IMG/VR virus record: IMGVR_UViG_3300027859_000890
Span: 1-64,000 of that record
Length of the DNA stretch: 64,000 bases
DNA from: a virus
Direction: 5' to 3' (one strand)
Shown: piece after piece, positions 18,338 through 55,107 of the stretch
Layout: every line of letters begins with the position of its first letter
How positions within the stretch are numbered: position 1 is the stretch's first letter
The notes under the pieces: generated by a model
The model's database searches: none
The model's input: the letters and a program-made list of their open reading frames with translations, nothing else
Told to the model about the DNA's origin: nothing
Program-made: the position numbers and the translations under genes

Positions 18338-19300
18338 ATGGTACGAATAGGAATAAATGGATTTGGTAGGATAGGCAGATGTGTTGCACGGCATATCCTA
18401 GACGAAAGAAACGATTTAGAAATAGTTAAAATAAATGCTACAGGTGATTATGATTCAAACAGTCACCTTTTACATTATGATAGTATACACGGTAGATGGA
18501 AAGGCACACTCAACGGCAAGGTTGAATGGAGTCACACAAGAGATATAAATGAATGTGATTGGAGCAGTGTAGATGTAGTTCTAGAATGTACAGGAGCATT
18601 TAATGATGGCGATATAGCAAAAACACATTTAGATAACGGAGCAGGTAAAGTTGTAATAAGTGCGCCTGCAAAGAATGTAGATAGAACTGTTGTATACGGA
18701 GTTAATCATACAGATATACTACCAGAAGAAAGTATGATCAGCAATGCAAGTTGCACTACAAATTGTCTTGCACCAATGGTAAAAGTATTGCATCAAGAGT
18801 TTGGTATTAAACGTGGCGTTATGACAACAGTGCATAGTTACACAGGAGATCAAAGCACAGTGGATCGTAGACACAAAGATCCTTATCGTGCTAGAACAGC
18901 AGGTATGAGTATGATACCTACAAGCACAGGTGCAACAAAAAACATAGGTAAAATTATTCCTGACTTAGATGGCAAGTTAACCGGTAGTGCAATTAGAGTA
19001 CCTACTGCCAATGTAAGTTGTGTTGACTTTACATTTCAATCCGAAACTGAATTGAGTGTAGAAGATATTAATTTAGCATTTGCAAAGTATTCACATCATT
19101 ATATGAATGGTGTATTAGGATATGAAACACAACCACTCGTTAGTATTGATTACAATCACACATCTGAAAGTTGCATAGTTGCTACAGATCAAACACAGGT
19201 AATTGACAAACATATGGGTCGTGTACTAGGTTGGTATGACAACGAATGGGCATTTAGTTGTAGAATGGCTGACACAGCATCTTATATAGGATACCTATGA
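18338..19300 (+). CDS. gap: glyceraldehyde-3-phosphate dehydrogenase (type I)
   Basis: GINGFGRIGR, ECTG, NASCTTNCLAP, HSYTGDQ, STGA, RVPT, WYDNE. Confidence 0.92.
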   Translation: MVRIGINGFGRIGRCVARHILDERNDLEIVKINATGDYDSNSHLLHYDSIHGRWKGTLNGKVEWSHTRDINECDWSSVDVVLECTGAFNDGDIAKTHLDNGAGKVVISAPAKNVDRTVVYGVNHTDILPEESMISNASCTTNCLAPMVKVLHQEFGIKRGVMTTVHSYTGDQSTVDRRHKDPYRARTAGMSMIPTSTGATKNIGKIIPDLDGKLTGSAIRVPTANVSCVDFTFQSETELSVEDINLAFAKYSHHYMNGVLGYETQPLVSIDYNHTSESCIVATDQTQVIDKHMGRVLGWYDNEWAFSCRMADTASYIGYL

Positions 19301-22185: not shown

Positions 22186-24486
22186 ATGAGTGACAATACC
22201 ATGATCGTCAAGCGTAGTGGCGAACAAGAACAACTAAACATAGAAAAAATACACAAAGTAGTAGAACACGCTTGTGAAGGTCTGGCAGGAGTTAGCAGTA
22301 GTTTGATTGAAATGAATGCTAACATTCAATTTTATAATGGTATGAGCTCAAAAGAAATTCAAGAAATTTTAGTCAGAAGTGCAAATGATTTGATCAGCTT
22401 GGAACATCCTAACTATCAATATGCGGCGGCAAGGTTACTTTCATACGGAACAAACAAAGAAGTATTTGGTGGATACGTTTGCTGTTCGCTACAAGAACTA
22501 ATAGATCTAAATATAGAACGTGGCGTTTATGATCCTGATATATTAAATTTATACACACCTGAGGAAATAGAAAGACTAGACAGTTACATTAATCACAAGC
22601 GTGATGAAAACTTTACATATGCTGGACTGAGACAAGTGGTAGACAAATACTTGTGTCAAGATCGTAGCAATGGGCAGTTATTTGAAACGCCACAATTTAT
22701 GTATATGATGATTGCCGCAACATTGTTTGCACAATATCCAAAAGAAACACGTATGCATTATGTAAGGAGATATTATGACGCAACATCACTCTTCAGAATC
22801 AACATCCCGACTCCAGTTATGGCAGGGGTTAGGACGCCTGTCCGGCAGTTCGCAAGTTGTGTGCTTGTTGACAGCGATGATACTCTTGATAGTATTTTTG
22901 CCAGTGATATGTCTATTGGTCGCTATACTGCTCAAAGAGCAGGCATTGGAATCAACGCAGGAAGAATCCGCGGAGTAAACAGCAAGATACGTGGCGGTGA
23001 AGTTGCACACACAGGTATTATTCCTTTCCTTAAGAAGTTTGAAAGCACAGTAAGATGTTGTACACAAAATGGTGTACGTGGCGGATCAGCAACAACACAC
23101 TTTCCTTTTTGGCATCAAGAGATTGAAGACATCCTTGTGCTAAAAAACAACAAAGGCACAGAAGATAATCGTGTGCGTAAGTTAGACTATTCAATCCAAC
23201 TGAACAAAACAATGTATGAAAGATTACTTTCGGGTGGTGAAATTACTTTATTCTCTCCACACGATGTACCTGGACTATATGAATCTTATTTTGGCGATCC
23301 AGATGCGTTCAAAGAAATGTATGAAATGTACGAACGCAAAACTAGCATTAAGAAAAAGAAAATTGATGCTATGGAATTGTTTTCAGCACTTATCAAAGAA
23401 CGTGCAGAAACAGGACGCATTTATATTATGAATGTTGATCATTCAAATACACACAGCTCATTCAAAGATCCTGTATATATGAGCAACCTATGTCAAGAAA
23501 TTACATTACCAACAAAACCATTACAACACATCGATGATGAGAATGGGGAAATAGCATTGTGTATTCTAAGTGCAATTAATGTTGGTGTAATTAAAGAACT
23601 TGACGACTTAGAAGAACTATGTGATCTAGCAGTTAGAGCACTAGAAGAAATTATAGATTATCAACGCTACCCAATTAAGGCAGCAGAAGTAAGCACAAAA
23701 GCAAGACGTAGTTTAGGTGTTGGTTATATAGGACTAGCACATTATCTTGCAAAAAATCACGTAAGCTATGAAGAAGATAGAGCTTGGAAACTTGTACACG
23801 ATTTGTCAGAAGCATTTCAATATTACTTGTTAAAAGCCAGCAACAAACTTGCACAAGAGCGTGGCGCCTGTGAATACTTTGACCGTACAAAATACAGTGA
23901 TGGAGTATTGCCTATTGATACATACAAAGCAGATGTTGATACAATAGTGGAGAATAAATTAAACTATGATTGGGATACTTTACGCACAGACATTCAACAA
24001 CACGGTCTTAGGCACAGCACATTGTCCGCACAAATGCCTTCAGAGAGCAGTTCCGTTGTGTCGAACGCCACCAATGGAATCGAGCCACCTAGAGGATACT
24101 TGTCCGTTAAGAAAAGCAAAAAAGGGCCTCTTAAGCAGATTGTTCCACAGTACCAAAGTCTAAAAAGTTATTATACTTTGTTGTGGGAAATGAGTGGCAA
24201 CCAAGGATATATTAATGTAGTTGCAGTAATGCAAAAATTCTTTGACCAAGCTATTTCAGGTAATTGGTCATACAATCCTACACAGTATGAAAACAATGAA
24301 GTGCCAATGAGTGTTATGATACAAGACTTGTTGCAAACATACAAGCTAGGATGGAAAACAAGTTATTATCAAAACACTTATGATTATAAAACAGATCCAA
24401 GTGAAATAGAAGATGAAAAGCCAGTAGAGCTTGCACAAGAAGAGTTGCCTGAGGATGACGAAATGTGCGATGCTTGCGCCATATAA
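22186..24486 (+). CDS. nrdA: ribonucleotide reductase class Ia alpha subunit with ATP cone
   Basis: VKRSG ATP cone, TPVMAG, ASCVL, SNLCQEI, KTSYYQ, C-terminal CDAC. Confidence 0.97.
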   Translation: MSDNTMIVKRSGEQEQLNIEKIHKVVEHACEGLAGVSSSLIEMNANIQFYNGMSSKEIQEILVRSANDLISLEHPNYQYAAARLLSYGTNKEVFGGYVCCSLQELIDLNIERGVYDPDILNLYTPEEIERLDSYINHKRDENFTYAGLRQVVDKYLCQDRSNGQLFETPQFMYMMIAATLFAQYPKETRMHYVRRYYDATSLFRINIPTPVMAGVRTPVRQFASCVLVDSDDTLDSIFASDMSIGRYTAQRAGIGINAGRIRGVNSKIRGGEVAHTGIIPFLKKFESTVRCCTQNGVRGGSATTHFPFWHQEIEDILVLKNNKGTEDNRVRKLDYSIQLNKTMYERLLSGGEITLFSPHDVPGLYESYFGDPDAFKEMYEMYERKTSIKKKKIDAMELFSALIKERAETGRIYIMNVDHSNTHSSFKDPVYMSNLCQEITLPTKPLQHIDDENGEIALCILSAINVGVIKELDDLEELCDLAVRALEEIIDYQRYPIKAAEVSTKARRSLGVGYIGLAHYLAKNHVSYEEDRAWKLVHDLSEAFQYYLLKASNKLAQERGACEYFDRTKYSDGVLPIDTYKADVDTIVENKLNYDWDTLRTDIQQHGLRHSTLSAQMPSESSSVVSNATNGIEPPRGYLSVKKSKKGPLKQIVPQYQSLKSYYTLLWEMSGNQGYINVVAVMQKFFDQAISGNWSYNPTQYENNEVPMSVMIQDLLQTYKLGWKTSYYQNTYDYKTDPSEIEDEKPVELAQEELPEDDEMCDACAI

Positions 24487-24498
24487 ATAATAAACTAG

Positions 24499-24527
24499 TT
24501 GACATACAGCCTAAATGGCTGTATAGT
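24499..24527 (+). promoter_or_regulatory. sigma70-type promoter
   Basis: TTGACA-17-TATAGT. Confidence 0.6.
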
Positions 24528-24558
24528 CGTCTATACAGACACAGAAAGAGGAAGAACG

Positions 24559-25662
24559 ATGTCGAAAACAGTTTTTAATAAAGAAAAAGTAGATTTTACA
24601 AAACAAAATATGTTTTTTGGCGAAGATCAGAATACACAACGTTACGATGTGTTTAAGTTTCCGGTCTTTGACAAACTCAACCAAACTATGCTAGGTTACT
24701 TTTGGCGACCAGAAGAAGTTAGTTTGCAAAAAGATAGAGCAGACTTTGCTGTATTTCGACCAGAACAAAAGCATATCTTTACTGCAAACTTAAAATATCA
24801 AACACTGTTAGACAGTGTTCAAGGACGTGGTCCTTGCTTGGCATTCTTGCCACACGTAAGTTTACCTGAGTTAGAGGGTTGTATTGTAACTTGGGATTTC
24901 TTTGAAACTATTCACTCACGTTCTTATACTCACATAATGAAAAATGTATATCCAGATCCAGCAGAAGTATTTGATACAATCTTAGATGATGAAAAAATTA
25001 TTGCTAGAGCTACAAGTGTTACAAAACATTACGATGCATTTAACGAAGCGGCAGATGCATACTTTCACAGAGGTGAAGGTTCAATGTATGATGTGAAGAA
25101 GAAAATGTATCTTGCTATGATGACAGTTAATATTTTAGAAGGCTTGCGTTTCTATGTAAGTTTTGCTTGTACATTTGGTTTTGGAGAACTAAAACTAATG
25201 GAAGGTAGTGCAAAGATTATCAGTCTTATTGCACGTGACGAAGCACAACACCTAGCATTGTCAACACACGTATTGAAACTATGGGCACAAGGCAAAGACG
25301 ATCCAGAAATGGCCAAAGTTGCAAAGGAATGCAAAGAAGAAGTGTATGACTTGTGGCGTGAATGTGTTGCAGAAGAAAAAGATTGGGCAGAGTATTTGTT
25401 CAAAGATGGTTCAATGATTGGTTTGAATACAACATTGCTAAATCAATACGTAGAATATATTGCAAACAGACGTTTGAAAGCATTGCAATTTGATGCTATC
25501 TTTGATGCACCAGTAAACACAAACCCACTACCTTGGACACAACATTGGTTATCAAGTTCAGGCTTGCAAGTTGCTCCACAAGAAACAGAAGTTGAAAGCT
25601 ATGTGATTGGTGGCATCAAGCAAGACGTGGATAAAGAAAGCTTAAAAGGATTTAGTTTATGA
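24559..25662 (+). CDS. nrdB: ribonucleotide reductase class Ia beta subunit
   Basis: FWRPEE, LDSVQGR, ETIHSRSY, EGLRFYVSF, DEAQH, APQETE; start set at MSKTVF. Confidence 0.97.
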   Translation: MSKTVFNKEKVDFTKQNMFFGEDQNTQRYDVFKFPVFDKLNQTMLGYFWRPEEVSLQKDRADFAVFRPEQKHIFTANLKYQTLLDSVQGRGPCLAFLPHVSLPELEGCIVTWDFFETIHSRSYTHIMKNVYPDPAEVFDTILDDEKIIARATSVTKHYDAFNEAADAYFHRGEGSMYDVKKKMYLAMMTVNILEGLRFYVSFACTFGFGELKLMEGSAKIISLIARDEAQHLALSTHVLKLWAQGKDDPEMAKVAKECKEEVYDLWRECVAEEKDWAEYLFKDGSMIGLNTTLLNQYVEYIANRRLKALQFDAIFDAPVNTNPLPWTQHWLSSSGLQVAPQETEVESYVIGGIKQDVDKESLKGFSL

Positions 25663-29174: not shown

Positions 29175-29275
29175 TGGCTCCGGGGGGAGGATTCGAACCT
29201 CCACGGTAAATATATTGCAGTACATCTACCACACGATAAACAGTCGTGCGTGTCTACCATTTCCACCACCCCGGA
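29175..29275 (-). tRNA. tRNA-Asn(GUU), atypical: 101 nt, type II long variable arm, U37
   Basis: TCCGGGG/CCCCGGA acceptor stem, G73, encoded CCA; D-arm GTGGAAATGGTAGACAC; anticodon arm CACGA-CTGTTTA-TCGTG; V-arm GGTAGATGTA/TATATTTACC; T-arm GGAGG-TTCGAAT-CCTCC. Confidence 0.85.
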
Positions 29276-29279
29276 TCAT

Positions 29280-30122
29280 TTATGCTGCCTGGGCTAAATC
29301 CTTTTGTTTGTCCAATGCAGCAATCATTCTTGTCATACCAATACCACCGCCTACTCTTTCAAAAAAATCAAACTTTAGAAACTCTTCTAGCTCTGCTTCT
29401 ACACGTTCTTTGCCAAATAATTCAAATAGTAAGTTACTGTATCCTCCATCTGTAATTGTATGGAATGTATGACGCATCATATCTATATCACAACTACGTT
29501 CTGCTGAGCCAATAGTTTCCATACCTCCTAGAATAACATCCATTTTCTTTGCAGTTAAGCCGTCATTGTTTCTACTCATATTCCAAAATGGTGATGTAAT
29601 TTCAGGAAAGTTAGTTATTAGAGTGCTGCCAAATTGAGATTCCATATCTAATTCGTGTTGGGCATCAAGTTCTTGACTATACTTTACACCAAAGTGCTCC
29701 TGCCATTCAGTGTAAGTCTTTTCTGTAAGTGCATCAAAACCCAAGTATTCACATAGTTCATACTCCATTGCTTTTAGGTCATCAACGGTGCCAGGAAATT
29801 CAAATTCAAACATAGGAAATATTATATCGTGTCTACCTGGTATTGCATTTGGTTCTTGTCTATAGGAAGTGCTGACACAAAAAAACCCCTTACTATCGGG
29901 GCTACTTAGTAATTCGTGTTCTAGCCACATCTGGCCTGTTTGCGGCAGTGGCCATACTTGGCCTGCATAATTATACGTTGCTACATTGAATGGATCTTCA
30001 CAAGCGGCAAGTATGCTTAATCTATTTTGAGTATGTACTTCTTGGAAACCTTTGTCCAAAAAAAATGACCTTAAAAGGCCAACTGTTTTCGTAAATTTTT
30101 CGGGTGATATTAGTTGCGTCAT
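29280..30122 (-). CDS. class IIb aminoacyl-tRNA synthetase (Asn/Asp type) catalytic-domain-only protein
   Basis: motif 1 LRSFFLDKGFQEV, LPQTGQ, motif 2 SYRQE...RH..FPMFEFE, ETIGSAER, motif 3 GGGIGMTRM; 280 aa, no N-terminal OB-fold; AAGGAG RBS. Confidence 0.8.
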   Translation of the reverse strand: MTQLISPEKFTKTVGLLRSFFLDKGFQEVHTQNRLSILAACEDPFNVATYNYAGQVWPLPQTGQMWLEHELLSSPDSKGFFCVSTSYRQEPNAIPGRHDIIFPMFEFEFPGTVDDLKAMEYELCEYLGFDALTEKTYTEWQEHFGVKYSQELDAQHELDMESQFGSTLITNFPEITSPFWNMSRNNDGLTAKKMDVILGGMETIGSAERSCDIDMMRHTFHTITDGGYSNLLFELFGKERVEAELEEFLKFDFFERVGGGIGMTRMIAALDKQKDLAQAA

Positions 30123-30203
30123 CTTTTTCTCCTTTTTTGACCTAAAAAAAATATGTCCAGAAATTGCTGGATTCAATCTTAAACCAAGTTATTTATCAAA
30201 AGG

Positions 30204-30234
30204 TTGACAAAGTTTTATTTCAATGTTATAAATA
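30204..30234 (+). promoter_or_regulatory. tmRNA promoter: overlapping sigma70 and late (TATAAATA) elements
   Basis: TTGACA-17-TATAAA(TA). Confidence 0.65.
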
Positions 30235-30239
30235 GACTT

Positions 30240-30552
30240 GTTAGCGTTGAAGCAACGTGGACACATACTGGACCTCGGGGCGGTACCGAGCAGCTCCACC
30301 ATAAACATATGAGAGTAGATGCACCTACTTTCCTGTGCATAGGACAAGAGCTCGAAAGGCTACAAGTCGTATGTTTATGATGGGGCTGAACAAGGATCGA
30401 CAGGTGTGAAAGTGAAGTGGAGTTAGCCGGATGACTGCGTTATTGGTCAAATTACACAATTGCAAACGACAATCGTGCGCCAGCAATGGCACTTGCAGCC
30501 TAATTAGGTATGCGGGGTATTGAGTTCCACCTAGCAACAGAACGGGCTCACC
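30240..30552 (+). ncRNA. ssrA: circularly permuted two-piece tmRNA (alphaproteobacterial type)
   Basis: acceptor piece ends ...CTCGGGGCGGTACCGAGCAGCTCCACCA (30301); intervening segment; coding piece starts GGGGCTGAA..GGATCGAC (30382); tag ANDNRAPAMALAA* at 30462-30503; outer ends approximate. Confidence 0.92.
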
Positions 30553-30611
30553 ATAAAATATTGGTTGAAACATTTTTTAGTTAAAGAACAACCATTTTAG
30601 AAAGGAATCAA

Positions 30612-32576: not shown

Positions 32577-33002
32577 ATGACATATAGAACTAATGCAGAT
32601 TTATTTGAAGTAGGAGATTTTATAAGCCACGCAGGGTTACCATTGCCTTGGAAGATTGAGTGTGATGCTATACGACCTGAATGGTGGGATGGACTTGCCC
32701 GTATGGTTATGGATTACCAAACAAGACCATTTTACAAAGCAGTAGGCATTCCACGAGGCGGTATTCCGTTTGCACAAGCAATGAACAAATATGCAAGTGG
32801 TGATCCTAATGATCAAGTTATGATTTGTGACGATGTGTTTACTACAGGTACAAGTATGAAAGAATTCATTGAACAAGAATATCCAGATTGGACAATGGGT
32901 CAAGGATATCGTTGGGTTGTGTTTGCAAGGCAACCTAGCAATGTACATCCATATCACGTAAGAGCATTATTCACTATGCCAACAAAGCCAAGGGAAGAAT
33001 AA
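32577..33002 (+). CDS. type I phosphoribosyltransferase (OPRT-like)
   Basis: F.SHAG..L.WKIECD, GIPRGG, CDDVFTTGTS PRPP loop. Confidence 0.8.
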   Translation: MTYRTNADLFEVGDFISHAGLPLPWKIECDAIRPEWWDGLARMVMDYQTRPFYKAVGIPRGGIPFAQAMNKYASGDPNDQVMICDDVFTTGTSMKEFIEQEYPDWTMGQGYRWVVFARQPSNVHPYHVRALFTMPTKPREE

Positions 33003-33988: not shown

Positions 33989-34729
33989 ATGCAAGAACTT
34001 GAAATAGTCGGTGCTCCAAGAAGCGGAGCAATGGGCTTCCAGCCAGCAGCCACTAGCCTAGCGGAAGGCATCTTTGCACTTGATGCAATGCTACTGGTTA
34101 TAATTACAGCAATTAGTATATTTGTTACAGCGTTAATGATATACACATTTATACGCTACAACCGCAAGCGTAATCCAACACCAGCAACGTTTACACATAA
34201 TAGTCCAATAGAAGTAGCGTGGACAATTGTACCTGTGTTTATATTGTTGTTCATAGGTATGCTTACATTACCTGAACTATTTAGGCAACAGATTATACCA
34301 GAAGCAGATGTAAGAATAAAAGTTACAGGCTATAGTTGGTATTGGGGATATGAATACACAGACCACGATTTTGGCTTTGACAGTTATATGCTTGAAAAAG
34401 AACAACTTGCAGAATATGGTTATGACGATGAATACTATTTGTTAGCAACAGATACAGCAGTGGTTGTACCTGTAAACAAAACTGTGGTAATGAATATCAC
34501 AGGAGGCGATGTTATACATAGTTGGAAGATACCTGCGTTTGGAGTAATGCAAGATGCAGTGCCCGGCAGACTAGCACAGTTATGGTTCAAGCCTGAACGT
34601 GAAGGCATTTACTTTGGACAGTGTTCAGAACTATGTGGTAAGAATCACGCATATATGCCTATCACTGTTAAAGTTGTAAGTGAAGTAGAATATAATAAAT
34701 GGCTTGAATGGGCTGCCAATGAATATTAA
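33989..34729 (+). CDS. coxB: aa3-type cytochrome c oxidase subunit II (no signal peptide)
   Basis: HNSPIEVAWT, WYWGYEY, DVIHSW, CuA motif CSELCGKNHAYM. Confidence 0.95.
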   Translation: MQELEIVGAPRSGAMGFQPAATSLAEGIFALDAMLLVIITAISIFVTALMIYTFIRYNRKRNPTPATFTHNSPIEVAWTIVPVFILLFIGMLTLPELFRQQIIPEADVRIKVTGYSWYWGYEYTDHDFGFDSYMLEKEQLAEYGYDDEYYLLATDTAVVVPVNKTVVMNITGGDVIHSWKIPAFGVMQDAVPGRLAQLWFKPEREGIYFGQCSELCGKNHAYMPITVKVVSEVEYNKWLEWAANEY

Positions 34730-35237
34730 ATTAGCATTGAAACTTGTTTTTATTGGAGTAGCAATGGGAGCATTGGCTTTTGCCAGTGTGCCATTTTATG
34801 ATTGGTTTTGTAGAACAACAGGATTTGGCGGAACACCACTTACAGCAGAAAGTGTAGAAGTAGAAGCATTGGATAAAACTATTACAGTTAGATTTGATGC
34901 AAACGTAGATTCAGACTTTCCTTGGTTGTTTTCACCAATGCAAAAGAAAATGGAAGTGCGTATAGGCGAATCAGAAATGGCTTTTTACCAAGTGCATAAT
35001 CCAACAGATGAAACAATGGCAGGCACTGCTACATTTAATGTAGTGCCTATGAGTGCAGGAGCATACTTTGTTAAGACAGAATGTTTTTGCTTTCAGCACC
35101 AAGAACTAGCACCTGGGCAGACAGAAGAAATGCCTGTTAGTTTTTATATAGATCCGGAGATATTAGAAGACAGAGAAACAGATTATCTTCAAACAATTAC
35201 ACTCAGTTACACATTTTATGAAAAGGATACACAATGA
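34719..35237 (+). CDS. ctaG: cytochrome c oxidase Cu chaperone Cox11/CtaG
   Basis: [33 protein letters not shown]. Confidence 0.93.
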
Positions 35238-36892
35238 CAGACGCAACACACGATGAATATCAGTCAGGATGGTTCACTAGATGGTTTATGAGTACAAACC
35301 ATAAAGATATTGGAATATTGTATTTGATTACTGCTGCCGTTATAGGTTTTATCAGTGTGGCATTGACAGTTTATATGCGTATGGAACTTATGCAACCTGG
35401 TGTACAATTTATGTGCGATGAAGGCGCTAGACTTATTATAGACAGCAGTGAATGTACACCAAACGGACACTTGTGGAATGTTGTAATTACATCACACGGT
35501 ATCCTTATGATGTTTTTTGTGTTGATACCTGCACTGTTTGGAGGCTTTGGTAACTATTTTATGCCGTTGCAAATTGGTGCACCTGATATGGCTTTTCCTA
35601 GAATGAATAATTTAAGTTATTGGTTGTATGTTGCAGGTGTTACACTTGCTATTTGTAGTTTGTTTGTGCCAGGAGGCAGTGGACAAAACGGTGCTGGTGT
35701 AGGTTGGGTAATGTATCCACCGCTAAGTAGCACTGAAGGTGGTATGAGTATGGACCTAGCTATCTTTGCGTTGCACGTATCGGGCGTCAGCAGTATACTT
35801 GGTGCAATCAATATTATTACTACATTTTTGAATATGCGAGCACCTGGAATGACACTACACAAAGTTCCTTTGTTTGCTTGGAGTATATTTGTAACAGGTT
35901 GGTTAATACTGTTGAGTCTACCTGTGCTGGCAGGTGCAATTACAATGTTGCTTACAGATAGAAACTTTGGTACAACATTCTTTGATCCTGCAGGTGGCGG
36001 TGATCCTATATTGTATCAACACATATTTTGGTTCTTTGGACACCCAGAAGTTTACATTATTATTTTACCAGGCTTTGGATTGATATCACATATTGTTGCA
36101 ACGTTTTCACGTAAGCCTATTTTTGGTTACTTGCCAATGGTATATGCAATGGTTGCAATTGGTGCATTAGGTTTTGTTGTATGGGCTCACCATATGTATA
36201 CAGTTGGTTTGTCAGTTACACAACAATCATATTTTATGTTGGCAACAATGGTAATTGCTATACCAACAGGTATAAAAATCTTCAGCTGGGTAGCAACACT
36301 TTGGGGTGGTAGTATAGAATTTAAAACACCAATGCTATGGGCTTTAGGATTTATATTTTTGTTTACAGTAGGAGGCGTAACAGGTATTGTGCTTTCACAA
36401 TCACCAGTTGATAGAGCATATCACGACACTTATTATGTTGTGGCACACTTTCATTACGTTATGTCGCTAGGTGCTGCCTTCTCAGTGTTTGCTGGAATAT
36501 ATTATTATTGGGGTAAAATGACTGGTAGGATGTACAGTGAATGGATGGGCAAGTTACATTTTTGGATGATGTTTATTGGTTCAAACGTAACATTCTTTCC
36601 ACAGCATTTTTTAGGACGCCAAGGTATGCCAAGACGTTATATTGATTATCCAGAAGCATTTGCATTGTGGAACTATGTAAGCAGTTTGGGTGCGTTCTTA
36701 GCATTTGCAAGTTTCATATTGTTCTTTTGGATAATGGCACATAGTTTCTTTTTTGGCAGACGTATTACAGAAACTAATTATTGGAACGAGTATGCAGATA
36801 CATTAGAATGGACACTACCTTGCCCACCACCAGAACACACTTTTGAAATATTGCCAAAAAGAGAGGATTGGGACAAAAGTGCTACACATTAA
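35234..36892 (+). CDS. coxA: aa3-type (A1) cytochrome c oxidase subunit I
   Basis: [60 protein letters not shown]. Confidence 0.98.
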
Positions 36893-39163: not shown

Positions 39164-39601
39164 ATGATTAGACTATTGACTACTCTAGCAATGCTAGTAG
39201 CAATGGCAATTCCTGCCGTTGCAGAAGATGTTACACTTGAAATGTGGAACAAAGACCCAGAAGATAAGAAACGCAAAATGGTTTTCTCAGAAGAGATTGT
39301 AACTATTGAACCAGGACAATCTATTACTTGGTTAGCATCAGATAAAGGACACAATGTTCAAATGATTGCAGGACCAAAAGGCGTAGACTTACCAGGTAAA
39401 TCAAAAATATCAAAAGATGTTACTTTGTCATTTGATGACCCAGGTGTGTACGTTTATGTTTGTACACCACACGCAACAATGGGTATGATTGGCGTAGTTG
39501 TTGTAGGTGAAGCAACTGAAGAAGCTATTAAAGCAGTTGAAAAAGCAAAAGTACGTGGCAAGTCAAAGAAGAAGCTACAGAAACTATTAAAAGAACTTTG
39601 A
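39164..39601 (+). CDS. pseudoazurin (type 1 blue copper protein)
   Basis: signal peptide; KGHNV, GVYVYVCTPHATMGM. Confidence 0.88.
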   Translation: MIRLLTTLAMLVAMAIPAVAEDVTLEMWNKDPEDKKRKMVFSEEIVTIEPGQSITWLASDKGHNVQMIAGPKGVDLPGKSKISKDVTLSFDDPGVYVYVCTPHATMGMIGVVVVGEATEEAIKAVEKAKVRGKSKKKLQKLLKEL

Positions 39602-47692: not shown

Positions 47693-48841
47693 ATGCGTTT
47701 AGAAGAAGATTTAAAACTTGATTACAAAGATGTGCTAATACGTCCTAAGCGTAGCACATTACAAAGTCGTAAGCAAGTTAGATTAAATCGTAAATTTCAA
47801 TTTCGTAATTACGATCACGACATTGCAGAACCTTTGCCAGACGAATATCATTATATTGGTATTCCTATTATGGCAAGTAATATGGATGGTGTTGGTACTA
47901 TGCGAATGGCTGATAAGTTAGCAGAAGGTGAAATGTTTACCTGTCTTGTAAAAACTTATACAGCAGAAGAACTTATAGATTTTTACAATTATGATGTTGG
48001 ATTAGAACGCACAGAAAATGTTGCTATGAGCATAGGTACTGGCGACAGTGATTACAATAAATTATACAAAGTAAAAAAAGAATGTGAACACAGACTAAAA
48101 TATGTTTGTATGGATATTGCAAATGGTTACAGTGACCATTTTGCCGCTCACGTTCGCAAAGTTAGAGCAGAATTTCCAGACTTGGTTATCATTGCTGGAA
48201 ATGTTGTTACTAGAGAAATGACAGAGGAGTTGATACTTGCAGGAGCAGACATCGTCAAAGTCGGAATCGGACCAGGGTCGGTTTGCACGACTCGCATACA
48301 AACTGGGGTGGGCTATCCCCAACTTAGTGCGGTTATTGAGTGTGCCGATGCGGCGCACGGGTTGGGCGGACATATTATTGCTGACGGGGGCTGTACTACT
48401 CCTGGTGATGTGGCAAAAGCTTTTGCTGCCGGTGCTGACTTCGTAATGCTTGGCGGTATGCTTGCTGGACACAATGAAGGTGGTGGTGATATTGTTACTG
48501 AACATATTGCTACAGGAGGAGCATATAAAACACCTGAAGGAACATATGTTCCTTATTTCAAAGAAAAAAAGTTTGTGCAGTTCTACGGTATGAGTAGTGA
48601 AAGCGCAAATGATAAGCATTTTGGTGGATTGAAAAACTATCGTTCATCAGAAGGACGCACAGTGCTTGTGCCTTATAAAGGTCCTGTGGCTATGTCAGTA
48701 CAGGAAATTTTAGGAGGTGTGCGTAGTGCTTGTACTTACACAGGCGCATTAAAACTCAAGCAACTAAGTAAGTGTGCAACGTTTATTCGTTGTTCACAAA
48801 CCCATAATCCGGTGTATGAATCATCGACAATTGGTAAATAA
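47693..48841 (+). CDS. guaC: GMP reductase
   Basis: [40 protein letters not shown]. Confidence 0.93.
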
Positions 48842-49690: not shown

Positions 49691-50004
49691 TAGTTTTTAT
49701 AATTGGTTACCTAATAATGTTTTTTAATGAAGGATTCGTGATTATGCGTCACGTTAGTCCTTGGTTTGCAAAAAAACGCAGCCTGTTGCATCTAAAATTT
49801 GGTAGAGAAAGAGTAAAACGTATCCACGGACTTACAGATTGGACTTGGATAATTTTACTTGTGATAGGAGTATATTTAGATTTTGAGAATTGGAAAGTGT
49901 ACGCAGTGCTTGTGTTTGCTTTCTGGATAGTAGTAGCAGTAGGAGTGTATCTTCCTATGCTATATAGAAAAATAAGAAAACAGCCAACGGGATATGTAAA
50001 ATGA
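49687..50004 (+). CDS. membrane protein
   Basis: three hydrophobic segments. Confidence 0.6.
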   Translation: MIVFIIGYLIMFFNEGFVIMRHVSPWFAKKRSLLHLKFGRERVKRIHGLTDWTWIILLVIGVYLDFENWKVYAVLVFAFWIVVAVGVYLPMLYRKIRKQPTGYVK

Positions 50005-50534
50005 GTAAATTAAAAGAGCTTACCTGGGAAAATCACCAAAATGCAGAACGTACTGCATTCGCTAGAAGATTAATGGGAGGTATTACACCAGAAGAATATC
50101 ACACATATCTTTATAATCAGTTTTTGATTTATGGTTCACTTGAATCATTAACTAATCTTGAAGGCATAGAAGATATACGTAGAACAAAGCGTATTGGTAT
50201 TGACTTAAAAGAGTTAGAAAAAACACAAGGACTTAAACGTACCAAAGAACAGTTACAACCTAGTGCATTAGATTATATAAATTATTTGCCAACACTTGAT
50301 AACGATGAATTAATGGCACACATATATGTAAGACACTTTGGCGATATGTATGGCGGGCAAATGATTAAAAAACGTTTAGACTTTACCAGCGGCACAATGT
50401 ATGACTTTGACAATGTTGAAGATCTTAAAACGAAAGTCCGTTCAATGGTAGGTGAAGATATGGCAGACGAAGCAAACATTTGTTTTAAGTATGCCGCAAA
50501 GTTATTCGAAGAGCTCAATAACGTGTATGCCTAA
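50001..50534 (+). CDS. heme oxygenase (biliverdin-producing, HemO/Ho1-like)
   Basis: LKELT..H..AE, AHIYVRHFGDMYGGQMI, EA..CF. Confidence 0.9.
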   Translation: MSKLKELTWENHQNAERTAFARRLMGGITPEEYHTYLYNQFLIYGSLESLTNLEGIEDIRRTKRIGIDLKELEKTQGLKRTKEQLQPSALDYINYLPTLDNDELMAHIYVRHFGDMYGGQMIKKRLDFTSGTMYDFDNVEDLKTKVRSMVGEDMADEANICFKYAAKLFEELNNVYA

Positions 50535-51222
50535 GACTGTTGTTGCAATTGGTTGTAGTCACACAGCTGGATCCGAAATAGACGGAGAATTTACCAGTGA
50601 TTACAATCGCCAAAACAGTTATGCAGGACAAATAGCAAAACATTTAGATTGTGATATTATAAACTTAGGTTTCAATGGCGGCAGTAATCAATATATTTGC
50701 AGAGCCGCAACACAATTTGTTACAGAAAATCATTACAAAATAAACGAATATTTTTTTGTTATAGGCTGGACCAGTCCATCTAGGATGGAACTACGTTATG
50801 ATGGCAGAAGCACACAAGAGTTTGATCCTACACCTCCGGGTATGGATCCAAAATATGTGCCATTTAGTTTAGGACAAAAAGACAATATAAAGTTACCTCT
50901 TGGCAAGGTTACACCTTATGCAGTTGATATATTCGAAACGTCAATGATGTTTGATCATTGGGCAATGTATATTATGAGTTTACAAAATTTATTTTTACAC
51001 TACAAAGTTCCATATATAATGTGTAATACTTGTGTGCCATTAGAATATACAAAAAACAGCAAAGCAACATCTGCACATATAGATAGGCGATATTATTATT
51101 TAGGTGATAATTTTTACGACTATAGCACTAGCAAGGCACATACATCATCCCAACATAATCATTTTGGGGAGCAGGCTCATATTGATTGGGCAAACAAATT
51201 AACAAAGGAGTTAAAACTATGA
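50527..51222 (+). CDS. SGNH-hydrolase-like protein
   Basis: IGCSHTAG, NLGFNGGSN, GWT, HF..AH; start set at MPKTV. Confidence 0.65.
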   Translation: MPKTVVAIGCSHTAGSEIDGEFTSDYNRQNSYAGQIAKHLDCDIINLGFNGGSNQYICRAATQFVTENHYKINEYFFVIGWTSPSRMELRYDGRSTQEFDPTPPGMDPKYVPFSLGQKDNIKLPLGKVTPYAVDIFETSMMFDHWAMYIMSLQNLFLHYKVPYIMCNTCVPLEYTKNSKATSAHIDRRYYYLGDNFYDYSTSKAHTSSQHNHFGEQAHIDWANKLTKELKL

Positions 51223-51905
51223 GCGAAGTTTGGGAAACATTAATCGAAATACAGGATAGACTAATTGATGCATTTGAAGAAACAGGAGTAGAAATACAAG
51301 AACCTGGAATGGATAGATTCAATCAGCCTGGTTGGATAAACAGAGTATGGCAAAGTGATAGTTATCGTAGAGCACACATTGATGTTGTAGACGCACGTGA
51401 GTCAAAAGGCTTATGGATGATGCATTGTTGTGTTTTTCCAAGACTTGATAACAATGGACCTATATTTGGATTAGATGTTATTGCTGGCAAAAGAAAGATT
51501 ACAGGATTTTTCCACGACTATAGTAGAACAATTGAACCTAACCACGCAATGATAAGTGCATTTGGAGAAGAAGTAGGCAAACTTGAATGGCGGAAAGAAC
51601 GTGAACTTCCTGAGTGGGCGCAAGCAATTTTTTCACCACATATGGTAGCGGCTGGTAATGTTAGCAAACGTGAAGAACTAGATCAGTTATTAGAGCTAAG
51701 TTTAGATAGTGTAGATGCATACCTTACTGATATTGGAAATTACAATAACGAAGCAGATTCAGATGAAGTTAAGGCAGCACAAAATCGCTATGCACATTAT
51801 CAAAAACAAAATCCACATACACCTAAAACAATGACCAGTTTAGGATTAGATGAAGAAGATGTGCGTGTGTTCGTACAAGAATGTTTATTCCCTGATATCG
51901 ACTAA
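51219..51905 (+). CDS. ferredoxin-dependent bilin reductase (PcyX/PcyA family)
   Basis: RRAHIDVVD, MMHCCVFP, PIFGLDVIAG, FHDYS, RELPEWA..IFS, Q..Y...QKQNPHT. Confidence 0.85.
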   Translation: MSEVWETLIEIQDRLIDAFEETGVEIQEPGMDRFNQPGWINRVWQSDSYRRAHIDVVDARESKGLWMMHCCVFPRLDNNGPIFGLDVIAGKRKITGFFHDYSRTIEPNHAMISAFGEEVGKLEWRKERELPEWAQAIFSPHMVAAGNVSKREELDQLLELSLDSVDAYLTDIGNYNNEADSDEVKAAQNRYAHYQKQNPHTPKTMTSLGLDEEDVRVFVQECLFPDID

Positions 51906-53012: not shown

Positions 53013-53480
53013 ATGAAACATTTATTACTAGTAGGGTTAATATTATTACCAACAATCGCAAACGCTGATCTTGTACACAAGTTCAGAAATCCAGCCTTTA
53101 ATGGCGGCGGTGGTTATAGTGCTCACGTTTTAGCATTAGAGCAACTACAAAAACAACGTAAAGAAGAAATGGAAAAAGAAGCAGAACGTCTTGCAGATGA
53201 ACTTGAACGTGAAGCAGATAACACAGTGCTTGCAAAATTTACCAGAAACTTAGAGTCACGTATCTATGCGACACTAAGTAAACAGCTAGTGGACAGTATG
53301 TTTGCAACTTGCGGTGACGGCACTGATCTTGAATGTGCAACAAGTGGCACAACTGAAATAGAAGGTGCAGAGATTGCTTGGACAAAAGATACAACCACAG
53401 GCAGCATAACACTTGTAGTTGACGGGCCAGATGGCTATACAGAAGTAACAATACCAGGACCAGGAGAATTTAACTTTTGA
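53013..53480 (+). CDS. csgF: curli assembly protein CsgF-like
   Basis: signal peptide; mature DLVHKFRNPAFNGG; F..NLESRI. Confidence 0.8.
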   Translation: MKHLLLVGLILLPTIANADLVHKFRNPAFNGGGGYSAHVLALEQLQKQRKEEMEKEAERLADELEREADNTVLAKFTRNLESRIYATLSKQLVDSMFATCGDGTDLECATSGTTEIEGAEIAWTKDTTTGSITLVVDGPDGYTEVTIPGPGEFNF

Positions 53481-54283
53481 AACATTTAGTAGCGATATTA
53501 TTAGCAGCCACTTTAGCAGGATGCAGTTGGATACCAAAAAACGTTCCAGATTCTATAAAAGCGCCTCCTAGAGTACAAGAGAATCCAGAAGTAAGAAGTT
53601 TGCATAAATTGCCAGCACTAAACGGTCCTAAGATGACCATAGGCGTTTATGGTTTTACAGATAAAACAGGACAACGTAAACCAGCAGACAATATGGCAAG
53701 CTTGAGCAGTGCAGTTACACAAGGCGCAGAAGTATGGGTAATTGATGCACTATTAGAAGCAGGTGGTGGTGAATGGTTTGAAGTTGTTGAACGCACAGGA
53801 ATGGACAACGTAATCAAAGAACGCCAACTAATTCGCAGCACTAGAGAAAACTATGAAAATGGTGTAGATAGAAATCTAGCACCTATGAAGTTTGCAGGAA
53901 TATTATTAGAAGGTGGTATTGTAGGATATGACAGCAATATTACCACAGGTGGTGCTGGAGCAAGATATATGAACATTGGTACAAGTACAGAGTACCGTGT
54001 AGACACAGTCACAGTCGCAATGCGTCTCGTAAGCGTTAGCACAGGTCGTGTGCTTATGAGCGTAGCAACACAAAAAACCATAGCTAGTTTTAGGCAAAGT
54101 GCAGATGCATTTCAATTCCTAGATATGGGCACCAAGGCATTGGAACTTGAAGCCGGTTACAGTGCAAATGAGCCAACTAATTACGCTGTAAGGGCAGTTA
54201 TTGACGCAGCAATCGTAGAATTAGTGTATGAAGGTGTAAGAAAAGGGCTTTGGAACTTCAAAGACGGTGAATTACAACCATAA
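53477..54283 (+). CDS. csgG: curli secretion channel CsgG lipoprotein
   Basis: lipobox LAGC; VYGFTDKTGQRK, S.AVTQG, WFEVVER, EGGIVGYDSN, NEP. Confidence 0.9.
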   Translation: MKHLVAILLAATLAGCSWIPKNVPDSIKAPPRVQENPEVRSLHKLPALNGPKMTIGVYGFTDKTGQRKPADNMASLSSAVTQGAEVWVIDALLEAGGGEWFEVVERTGMDNVIKERQLIRSTRENYENGVDRNLAPMKFAGILLEGGIVGYDSNITTGGAGARYMNIGTSTEYRVDTVTVAMRLVSVSTGRVLMSVATQKTIASFRQSADAFQFLDMGTKALELEAGYSANEPTNYAVRAVIDAAIVELVYEGVRKGLWNFKDGELQP

Positions 54284-54351
54284 AGAAGAAAACTAAAAGG
54301 TAAATACCTGGACGACCGACGGGTTGTCATAAAATGAAATGAGGGCAAATA

Positions 54352-55107
54352 ATGAAAAGATCGATCATAACATTGGTCGCTTTCCTTTGGGCAACCGCGA
54401 GCGTTGCTAACGAAATCTATATAGATCAAGTTGGTGACAATTTAGACTTGACCATTTCTCAAACAGGAAGCGGCAACGAAGTAGGTGACTCAACAACCGA
54501 CCTAACTTTGGACGGTGCAAATATGACCTTCAGCATAACGCAAACAGGTGACAACAACAAAATTGACGCAGTCATTAAAGGCGCAACGTACACAGGTACT
54601 TGGGCATTTACTGGTGACGACAATACTGTTGATTTGAAATGTAGTAGCGCAAGCACAGGCAACTGTGATACTGTAACAGTTAACATTACAGTAGGTGCTA
54701 ATACCACTGGCGGCGCAGACGATAACGTATTCCAAATCTATATGGGAGAAGCATCTGGACAAGATGTAGACAATATGGTGGCAGCTTTCACAGTCGACGG
54801 TGATGGCAACGTTGTTGATGTAGCAAGCGGCAGTGGAGCAAGTGATATCACTGTTACAGTTGATAACACTGCAACTAATAGTACTGAGCAGTATACAGAT
54901 TCAAACACAAGTTTAGCAACAACAGCTGGTGGTAACTATGTTGACATCGACCAAACAGAAGGCGGTGTTGCAGGACACAGCATAGTATTAGACATTACCG
55001 GAGGTGGTGGACACTTTGACATTGATCAAGCCGGATTAAATGACAGCAAAATAAATGCTACATTTGACGGTGACGATGCAGATGTATCCATATCACAGAA
55101 CGACTAA
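54352..55107 (+). CDS. curlin-repeat-like secreted protein
   Basis: signal peptide; NEIYIDQVG and I.QTG..N repeats. Confidence 0.7.
   Translation: MKRSIITLVAFLWATASVANEIYIDQVGDNLDLTISQTGSGNEVGDSTTDLTLDGANMTFSITQTGDNNKIDAVIKGATYTGTWAFTGDDNTVDLKCSSASTGNCDTVTVNITVGANTTGGADDNVFQIYMGEASGQDVDNMVAAFTVDGDGNVVDVASGSGASDITVTVDNTATNSTEQYTDSNTSLATTAGGNYVDIDQTEGGVAGHSIVLDITGGGGHFDIDQAGLNDSKINATFDGDDADVSISQND

Follow-up and report, generated by a model that had tools for sequence, protein, structure and literature searches.

Two clades of marine phages carry an enzyme gene and a tRNA gene as a single heritable unit, and the pair is tentatively read here as a previously undescribed pyrimidine-precursor enzyme with a dedicated, asparagine-carrying tRNA. 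The example from which the analysis proceeded lies in the first 64 kb (hereafter, the window; 64,000 nucleotides) of the 134,166-base IMG/VR virus record IMGVR_UViG_3300027859_000890, the completeness of which was put at 37% by CheckV. A gene for a protein of 280 amino acids resembling the catalytic core of asparaginyl-tRNA synthetase (AsnRS), a class IIb enzyme, is followed there by a tRNA gene with the anticodon GUU and a long variable arm (Table 1). Among marine phages the two genes are tightly linked, and relatives of the enzyme in cells are fused to, or encoded beside, enzymes of pyrimidine synthesis and occur mostly in genomes with no recognizable aspartate carbamoyltransferase. The supply of nucleotides is the probable function of the pair, rather than the private charging of a tRNA alone.

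Linkage of the enzyme and a long-arm tRNA in marine phages

Viral relatives of the window enzyme numbered 594, and the best 80 of these, 81-90% identical to it, were used to assess linkage. The tRNA was located just downstream of the enzyme gene in 78 of the 80 loci. At the other two (L014 and L017), the gene was followed by a hairpin and then by the next gene; both enzymes are placed inside the tRNA-bearing clade of the family tree, and hence these are losses of the tRNA. The cultured cyanophages P-SSM7, P-SSM2, and P-SSM5 encode a homolog that is 61-66% identical, annotated as "tRNA ligase" and followed by a tRNA-Asn of 85-88 nucleotides. When the P-SSM7 protein was used as the seed and the best 80 of at least 599 viral loci were inspected, the tRNA was present at all 75 loci with downstream DNA, the other five ending at the gene or no more than 34 nucleotides past it. 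The reverse search gave the same picture: a 29-nucleotide pattern of the tRNA core matched 96 viral stretches, and of the 80 retrieved, 76 had the enzyme gene immediately upstream of the tRNA and four had too little upstream DNA. The tRNA was thus found without the enzyme gene at none of the 76 assessable tRNA loci. An earlier note, made from the window sequence alone, had looked to homologs for such a linked long-arm tRNA, and these counts bear it out for the marine phages.

The end of the protein match and the tRNA were mostly separated by 6-20 nucleotides (76 relatives), and the genes surrounding the pair differed between phages. A NifU-like gene 3' of the tRNA was considered as a further member of the module and rejected, as it recurs in 4 of 83 loci. 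With P-SSM2, the enzyme-linked tRNA was the sole match to the tRNA model in the entire genome. In its RefSeq record (NC_006883.2), the tRNA-Asn feature (PSSM2_199) is annotated at 164094-164179, within a coding sequence; the actual tRNA lies at approximately 162083-162171, right after PSSM2_198, the annotation being offset by about 2 kb. The long-arm tRNA(GUU) was not found in the huge phages LR756501 and LR756508; in the former, the neighbors of the homolog encode a RimK-like ATP-grasp protein and a 669-residue protein with a weak phosphoribosyltransferase motif. The enzyme and the long-arm tRNA(GUU) thus form a phage-specific module, the two parts of which are inherited as one.

The Rfam tRNA model recognized the window tRNA with 48.1 bits (gathering score, 29), an anticodon loop of CUGUUUA, which places GUU as the anticodon and U at position 37, and an insertion of 26 nucleotides in the variable region. 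The remaining features, viz. the 4-nucleotide distance from the enzyme gene, the length of 101 nucleotides, U1-A72, G73, an encoded CCA, a Leu-type D arm with a 3-bp stem, and a variable region of 29 nucleotides with a 10-bp stem, were parsed as the earlier note had reported them, the CCA and the stem length of the D arm being additional details. Canonical bacterial tRNA-Asn has a variable loop of 4-5 nucleotides, a 4-bp D stem, and A37 as t6A. The alignment of 47 distinct homologous tRNAs was folded by RNAalifold into a cloverleaf with the base of the extra arm. In this structure, 18 of the 24 pairs involve compensatory changes and 99.8% of the cells pair. The observed values were not attained in any of 500 shuffles, and when the structure was slid by 1-3 columns, no more than seven pairs with compensatory changes were obtained. 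Acceptor pairs 2-7 covary freely, and three pairs at the base of the variable arm also covary. The tRNA is real and is under selection.

Identity elements were counted over 99 distinct tRNA sequences from the two phage clades. U1-A72, G73, and GUU were each invariant (99/99), while position 37 was occupied by U in 89, A in nine, and C in one, and position 33 by U in 91 and C in eight. The CCA end was encoded in 45 of the 99, all from the clade of the window. An arm was always present, the variable region ranging from 13 to 32 nucleotides and its stem from 3 to 12 bp; conservation of the arm, on which the earlier note had staked part of its case, thus holds for base pairs that covary and fails for length. 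A covariance model built from the 47 aligned sequences found a tRNA-Leu as its best match in all eight cellular loci inspected, indicating that the body of the tRNA is Leu-like, with an acceptor end and anticodon that are Asn-like. In common with class II tRNAs, and tRNA-Leu in particular, it possesses the long variable arm, the 3-bp D stem, and a D loop of the GG..GGUAGAC type. It differs from tRNA-Leu, the bacterial discriminator of which is A73, in its G73, its GUU anticodon, the invariant U1-A72, and the nearly constant pyrimidine at position 37. By its sequence, the molecule belongs neither with canonical tRNA-Asn nor with tRNA-Leu. The 134 kb of the phage record yielded no tRNA-Asn of the canonical type. 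The tRNA array of this phage includes an 85-nucleotide tRNA-Trp(CCA) whose variable region is also enlarged, so that odd tRNA bodies are not confined to the long-arm tRNA(GUU).

ARAGORN called the window tRNA wrongly as Asp(atc), and its long-arm relatives as Asp(atc), Glu(ctc), Gly(acc), a tRNA with a four-base anticodon, or "Stop", or missed them; relatives with shorter arms were called Asn(gtt). Since the program errs whenever the arm is long, automated annotation can be expected to mislabel this tRNA family widely.

The enzyme family and its association with pyrimidine synthesis

The only Pfam domain recognized in the 280-residue protein was PF00152 (tRNA-synt_2; E = 2.6e-15), with residues 12-276 aligned to profile positions 27-298 of 308. 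The N-terminal OB-fold anticodon-binding domain of the Asp, Asn, and Lys synthetases was not found in the protein by Pfam, and the limits of this sole match indicate that it is absent; a true class IIb enzyme encoded near one of the cellular loci (L127) has, by contrast, both PF01336 and PF00152. Motifs 1-3 are all present, and the ATP-holding arginines of motifs 2 and 3 are conserved in the family alignment. The earlier description of the protein as a class IIb core devoid of an OB-fold and ending at position 29280 was confirmed by the open reading frame (ORF), Pfam, and the family alignment. An AlphaFold2 model (mean pLDDT, 96.1) compared by Foldseek with the PDB gave AsnRS catalytic domains as its best matches (9sh8, 1x54, 2xti, and 8tc8; query-normalized TM-scores, 0.71-0.77), at identities of 18-20%. 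A profile of 48 family members was likewise nearest to AsnRS of the eukaryotic and archaeal type (E = 3e-15), followed by aspartyl-tRNA synthetase (AspRS; ~1e-12), archaeal asparagine synthetase A (3p8t; 7e-7), and EpmA-type chains (~1e-4). The QTGQMxLE segment of the family aligns with QSSQLYLE of AsnRS, and the predicted pocket resembles that of AsnRS.

By the standards applied to AsnRS, however, the enzyme does not appear to be one: it is without an anticodon domain, it scores below cut-off, and its family coexists with true AsnRS. The best NCBIfam score was 26.1 bits, to the model of non-discriminating AspRS (ND-AspRS; cut-off, 353), and the asnS model was not matched. Canonical AsnRS over its cut-off accompanies the family gene in 6 of 24 carrier genomes; it was absent from four of the five cellular carriers first tested. 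The likeness to the AsnRS catalytic domain thus comprises the fold, the best profile match, motifs 1-3, and the aligned QxxQxxLE segment, and the differences comprise the missing OB-fold and hinge, the low identity, the small size, and the linkage to pyrimidine genes. Two other families were considered. The archaeal asparagine synthetase A (3p8t/1nnh) and bacterial AsnA present a similar case of a stand-alone class IIb core turned from charging to small-molecule synthesis, but they are more distant in sequence (E = 7e-7 and 2.8e-5) and differ in gene context, and no tRNA is dedicated to the archaeal enzyme; membership was rejected given this distance from 3p8t and the NCBIfam scores of 17.6 bits with NF005055 (cut-off, 389) and 12.7 bits with NF005053 (cut-off, 322). 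Membership of EpmA/PoxA, the EF-P-modifying paralogs of lysyl-tRNA synthetase, was rejected on the profile E-value and the absence of a gene for EF-P among the neighbors scanned.

A family scan over 1.8 billion representatives (E <= 0.001; clusters at 50% identity) found 688 relatives, and most of the 150 listed were of 260-300 residues; matches to the enzyme extend over more than 8000 clusters of proteins (90% identity). As far as sequence comparison can tell, the family is distinct, consistently domain-less, and far from ordinary synthetases. No viral relatives were returned by a search with a distant representative of the family (P0156). Among species-representative prokaryote genomes, 394 stretches encode relatives, the best 80 of which were kept, with a 10-row family alignment as the query. 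Cellular hosts of homologs with 55-63% identity include Patescibacteria, Midichloriaceae and other Alphaproteobacteria, Aureispira, Chitinophagales, and Weeksellaceae; some of the 80 loci are on marine contigs that look like mis-binned phage, and the long-arm tRNA was present in only seven of the 80, all of them marine and phage-like.

In a tree rooted with AsnRS, the tRNA-linked enzymes formed one clade (25 with the tRNA and the two losses), which was nested within a clade of support 99 together with Bacteroidota, alphaproteobacterial, and fused forms. Sequences of candidate phyla (Patescibacteria) fell outside the latter as separate basal clades. No long branch led to the phage clade, whereas a very long one divides the family from canonical AsnRS. 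The domain-less family appears to be older than its pairing with the tRNA and to be widespread in bacteria that have no such tRNA. The earlier note took the enzyme to have shed its anticodon reader as the tRNA acquired an arm; this proposal is not sustained, the family being old and present without the tRNA in hundreds of cellular genomes. That note had also held that homologs without a linked long-arm tRNA would speak against its pairing; such homologs do exist in cells and huge phages, and the marine phage clade is not affected.

The association with pyrimidine synthesis is visible in the longer relatives. Eight of 12 combine the enzyme domain with DHO_dh (PyrD), one such fusion being seen on seven contigs; a ninth has DHO_dh and a match to the window protein over 63% of the length. 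One further relative is fused to orotidine monophosphate decarboxylase (PyrF). Within the clade holding the phage enzymes, pyrD, pyrE, or pyrF was among the two nearest ORFs on either side at 11 of 22 cellular loci, and the window protein itself lies inside the clade of support 99 that contains the pyrimidine-linked genes. Over 24 cellular carriers, PyrD and PyrF exceeded their family cut-offs in 16 and 17 genomes, respectively, compared to two for PyrB and five for CarB; PyrC did so in two with the multimeric model and in none with the dimeric. PyrB was present in 14 of 14 control genomes. In one carrier, an Aureispira with 6.7 Mb of genome, PyrD and PyrF are encoded beside the family gene and PyrB is missing. 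Of 80 class-level relatives of this organism, none has the family gene, and PyrB was detected at E <= 1e-50 in 76 and over cut-off in 74. Together, the fusions, the adjacency to pyrD/E/F, and the anticorrelation with PyrB form the pattern that arises when the steps leading up to PyrD are taken over by a non-orthologous enzyme. By phyletic pattern and context, the family holds the same place in the pathway as the CarAB/PyrB/PyrC entry, to which it has no homology; its fold is that of a class II adenylate-forming enzyme and not of a transcarbamoylase or amidohydrolase, and its presumed source would be asparagine and CO2 without carbamoyl phosphate.

A bona fide phage PyrE is encoded by P-SSM2 (129.7 bits) and P-SSM7 (131.1 bits; cut-off, 106.8). 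Over 50,697 phage records, this PyrE was confined to P-SSM2, P-SSM5, P-SSM7, six partial marine virus records, and one huge phage. None of pyrD, pyrE, and pyrF was found in the 134 kb of the phage of the window. A 141-residue protein with the phosphoribosyl pyrophosphate-binding motif of type I phosphoribosyltransferases is encoded 2.4 kb from the pair; it was considered as a PyrE and rejected, scoring 13.9 bits with the same model and matching P-SSM2 PyrE by BLASTP with an E-value of 0.023.

Possible roles of the pair

The pair is proposed, tentatively, to function as a nucleotide-supply module and not as a translation kit. The enzyme would be an AsnRS-derived class II adenylate-forming enzyme, and its family would replace the carbamoyl phosphate/aspartate carbamoyltransferase entry, and often dihydroorotase, in de novo pyrimidine synthesis. 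Its most likely reaction would be the conversion of asparagine to dihydroorotate, in which asparagine, CO2 or bicarbonate, and ATP would give an adenylated N-carboxy-asparagine that closes to the ring. Dihydroorotate can be regarded as asparagine with one carbonyl bridging the alpha-amino nitrogen and the side-chain amide nitrogen; it is from this likeness, the AsnRS-like pocket, and the many carriers without carbamoyl-phosphate synthetase that the proposal was drawn. An N-carboxy amino acid is adenylated in the synthesis of threonylcarbamoyl-AMP, too, and archaeal asparagine synthetase A is an example of the same class IIb pocket with its substrate flipped or altered. Alternatively, the beta-carboxyl group of aspartate or of carbamoyl-aspartate might be activated, in the manner of that archaeal enzyme. 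PyrD and PyrF of the host and, in P-SSM2 and P-SSM7, the PyrE of the phage would then receive the product.

The tRNA(GUU) would serve as the dedicated partner of the enzyme, most likely by bringing asparagine to it. GUU is invariant although the partner enzyme has no part that could read an anticodon. Both AsnRS and ND-AspRS read the anticodon and G73, and the invariance of GUU and G73 would fit loading with Asp by a non-discriminating AspRS of the host or with Asn by a host AsnRS. U37 and C33 are poor for decoding, and a pyrimidine at position 37 is unexpected in a working tRNA that reads ANN codons; U37 and the class II body may thus keep the tRNA out of ordinary decoding, making it a private supply of asparagine for the enzyme that is poorly used by the ribosome. 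The invariant U1-A72 would fit amidation by host GatCAB, the likely hosts being Prochlorococcus and SAR11-like Alphaproteobacteria. According to a review, U1-A72 is a positive recognition element of GatCAB in bacteria, many of which obtain Asn by the indirect route alone (PMC2330236). As in the ND-AspRS/GatCAB system (PMC2330236), where a tRNA(GUU) with U1-A72 is the scaffold for Asn synthesis, the phage tRNA keeps both elements, and in two candidate-phyla lineages, Peribacteria and Gracilibacteria (L124 and L158), the family gene directly follows gatC-gatA. It differs in that neither enzyme is encoded in the 134 kb of the phage record and in that the phage tRNA is of class II with U37. The fullest version of the scheme, viz. 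a tRNA-dependent pyrimidine route in which ND-AspRS and GatCAB of the host build Asn on a non-translating carrier and the enzyme removes it from the 3' end of that tRNA and closes it with CO2 and ATP to dihydroorotate, is doubtful. The linkage, the structure of the tRNA, the AsnRS-like fold, the fusions, the gene neighborhoods, and the displacement of aspartate carbamoyltransferase were all observed; we infer the substrate, the product, the loader of the tRNA, and any contact between it and the enzyme.

A number of observations weigh against the pyrimidine proposal and its tRNA partnership. The reaction is a guess from chemistry for every member of the family. PyrD was not found in the 134 kb of this phage nor in five other phage records. 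Two complete Patescibacteria genomes encode the family gene and none of PyrD, PyrF, PyrB, CarB, AsnRS, and AsnB, and a role in pyrimidine synthesis cannot therefore be the only one of the family. In Patescibacteria, the homolog repeatedly follows a gene for a DusB-type tRNA dihydrouridine synthase and precedes dnaX (L101, L102, L106, L109, L111, L121, L125, and L130), the DusB-type neighbor occurring in 8 of the 27 candidate-phyla loci of the first batch; these tRNA-related contexts, like that of gatC-gatA, are not explained by a pyrimidine function. The cellular homologs devoid of a dedicated tRNA and the two losses in phages indicate that the enzyme is not strictly tRNA-dependent. The phage enzymes are strongly acidic, with a median net charge of -20 compared to -15 and -10 in two tRNA-less groups, and none of the nine substitutions specific to their clade, relative to tRNA-less relatives, adds a basic residue, which together argue against tight binding of a tRNA. 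The A37 of nine of the 99 tRNAs is compatible with normal decoding. Finally, GatCAB rejects tRNAs carrying an extra base in the D loop (PMC2330236), and the phage tRNA has a large, Leu-like D loop and a long arm.

The earlier note favored a co-evolved private aminoacylation pair, in which an anticodon-blind AsnRS core would charge Asn onto the long-arm tRNA(GUU) for the decoding of AAY codons; the benefit would be direct Asn-tRNA formation in hosts relying on ND-AspRS and GatCAB, or a tRNA that escapes anticodon nucleases. Parts of this have stood: the module is real in phages, its genes are tightly and reciprocally linked, AsnRS is nearest in fold and profile with the three class II motifs in place, the arm covaries at its base, GUU, G73, and U1-A72 are invariant with CCA encoded in 45 of 99, the phage record yielded no canonical tRNA-Asn, and four of the five cellular carriers first tested lacked AsnRS. 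Nevertheless, charging as the function is unlikely. The tRNA is younger than the family and is dispensed with by its cellular members, the family coexists with canonical AsnRS in a quarter of the carriers (6/24), and a charging role leaves unexplained both the pyrimidine fusions and adjacency and the anticorrelation with aspartate carbamoyltransferase. The phage clade shows neither a long branch nor an adaptation to RNA binding (net charge of about -20), and it has no domain that could reach or read an arm whose stem varies from 3 to 12 bp; reading of the arm in the manner of seryl-tRNA synthetase was rejected as unlikely on the same grounds of a missing extra domain and a varying arm length. 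The U37 of 89 and C33 of eight of the 99 tRNAs would impair decoding, and an anticodon-blind enzyme reading just U1-A72 and G73 would risk charging tRNA-Gln.

It is also improbable that a phage tRNA-Leu was remoulded into a plain decoding tRNA-Asn that is cotranscribed with a metabolic enzyme but has no physical partnership with it. Such a tRNA could sustain decoding of AAY, or raise tRNA-dependent Asn synthesis, as the enzyme drains asparagine, and the Leu-like body (8/8 cellular loci), the comparable tRNA-Trp of the same phage, the want of tRNA-binding adaptation in the enzyme, A37 in nine of the 99, and the losses at two loci would all be in accord with it. It offers no reason, however, for a tRNA to stay within about 4-20 nucleotides of one enzyme gene across clades of 61-66% identity while other neighbors change, to be found away from that gene in none of 76 cases, or to be the sole tRNA retained by P-SSM2, and a pyrimidine at position 37 in 90 of 99 would not be expected of it. 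Less probable still is that the enzyme forms Asn from Asp, NH3, and ATP, as the AsnRS-paralog asparagine synthetase of archaea does, or that it is another amino-acid ligase such as an EpmA-like protein modifier, with the tRNA using or signaling Asn. The architecture is indeed that of archaeal asparagine synthetase A, a class IIb core of approximately 290 residues without an anticodon domain, and the profile does match 3p8t and, at ~1e-4, EpmA-type chains, with weak NCBIfam matches to asparagine synthetase A. But the profile is much closer to AsnRS (3e-15 vs. 7e-7), the NCBIfam scores of 17.6 and 12.7 bits are far from cut-offs of 389 and 322, AsnB is already present in 12 of the 24 carriers, and neither EF-P nor another protein target ever recurs beside the gene in the neighborhoods scanned. 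Moreover, production of Asn alone would not account for the missing aspartate carbamoyltransferase, carbamoyl-phosphate synthetase, and dihydroorotase, nor for the fusions to PyrD. A pyrimidine-precursor enzyme with its own asparagine-carrying tRNA is hence the reading tentatively preferred, and under every one of the readings that survive the module is unlike any described system.

In GenBank, the enzyme gene of cyanophages is annotated only as "tRNA ligase," and it appears under that name as one row of a table (PMC3037559, part available); phosphoribosyl, pyrE, and pyrimidine are not mentioned in that part of the article. No description of the pair or of an AsnRS-like pyrimidine enzyme was found in the literature searched, the coverage of which did not extend to subscription journals. 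Should the family indeed replace the carbamoyl-phosphate/aspartate carbamoyltransferase entry, a textbook pathway would have a second, hitherto undescribed way to begin, one employed by Bacteroidota, Alphaproteobacteria, candidate-phyla bacteria, and giant-virus-like and phage genomes, including some of the most abundant phages of the ocean; the viral spread amounts to approximately 600 or more loci per phage clade. For the phages it would be a new auxiliary metabolic gene that escapes the feedback-controlled pyrimidine entry of the host. The class II tRNA(GUU) with U37 would be either the first natural partner of an anticodon-blind AsnRS, and so a useful orthogonal pair, or a metabolic-carrier tRNA. 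If the tRNA-dependent route were true, it would replace carbamoyl-phosphate synthetase, aspartate carbamoyltransferase, and dihydroorotase, and it would provide the first phage tRNA acting as a metabolic cofactor and not as a decoder. Prochlorococcus NATL1A/NATL2A with P-SSM2, P-SSM5, and P-SSM7 are cultured systems suited to direct tests.

Gene layout and surroundings of the pair

The positions of the pair and of other features of the record are given in Table 1. A scan for promoters and terminators around the enzyme-tRNA pair gave no signal above chance, and no terminator was found by it between the enzyme gene and the tRNA.

Table 1. Features of the enzyme-tRNA pair and of its surroundings; positions are numbered from the first base of the window, which is also that of the virus record.
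Feature	Position	Strand	Basis or remark
AsnRS-like class IIb catalytic core, 280 amino acids	29280..30122	-	ATG at 30122, stop codon 29282-29280
Spacer, 4 nucleotides, from stop codon to first tRNA base	29276..29279	-	Read from sequence
Class II tRNA(GUU), 101 nucleotides, encoded CCA	29175..29275	-	Rfam tRNA and covariation
Anticodon GUU, tRNA bases 35-37 of 101	29239..29241	-	Rfam alignment
U at canonical position 37	29238	-	Base directly 3' of anticodon, Rfam alignment
Variable region, 29 nucleotides: 10-bp stem, 6-nucleotide loop CUGCAA	29203..29231	-	RNAfold, -9.7 kcal/mol
GAPDH	18338..19300	+	
Class I ribonucleotide reductase, large and small subunits	22186..25662	+	
Permuted tmRNA gene, alphaproteobacterial type	30189..30594	+	Rfam alpha_tmRNA, 125.4 bits
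141-residue protein with phosphoribosyl pyrophosphate-binding motif	32577..33002	+	
Cytochrome c oxidase subunit II, CtaG/Cox11 assembly protein, subunit I	33989..36892	+	COX1 E = 9e-159 (subunit I)
Plastocyanin/azurin-like copper protein	39164..39601	+	
IMPDH/GMP-reductase family protein	47693..48841	+	
Heme oxygenase, DUF6071 ORF, ferredoxin-dependent bilin reductase	50001..51902	+	
CsgF and CsgG curli secretion genes, curlin-repeat protein	53013..55104	+	
CHASE2-adenylate/guanylate cyclase	57920..59962	+	
tRNA-Trp(CCA), 85 nucleotides	75392..75476	+	Record position, in tRNA array
Radical SAM and/or SPASM-domain proteins, run of at least eight	~69.3-89.3 kb		Record position, beyond the window

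A permuted tmRNA gene adjoins the pair and encodes the tag peptide ANDNRAPAMALAA; being of the alphaproteobacterial type, it hints at an alphaproteobacterial host. Heme oxygenase is encoded close to a ferredoxin-dependent bilin reductase, with the DUF6071 ORF overlapping between them, and this combination is typical of cyanophages, whereas the tmRNA of the record is of the alphaproteobacterial type.

Genes for cytochrome c oxidase subunits II and I and the CtaG/Cox11 assembly protein are present, and a plastocyanin/azurin-like copper protein is encoded in the same virus record. Since respiratory-chain genes are unusual in a phage, they may constitute a striking auxiliary set, or else they may indicate that the contig contains host DNA. 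Other host-like metabolic genes are those of GAPDH, both subunits of a class I ribonucleotide reductase, and a protein of the IMPDH/GMP-reductase family. The curli secretion genes for CsgF and CsgG occur with one for a curlin-repeat protein and are followed by that of a CHASE2-adenylate/guanylate cyclase, and beyond the window, the record continues with a run of genes for at least eight proteins with radical SAM and/or SPASM domains.

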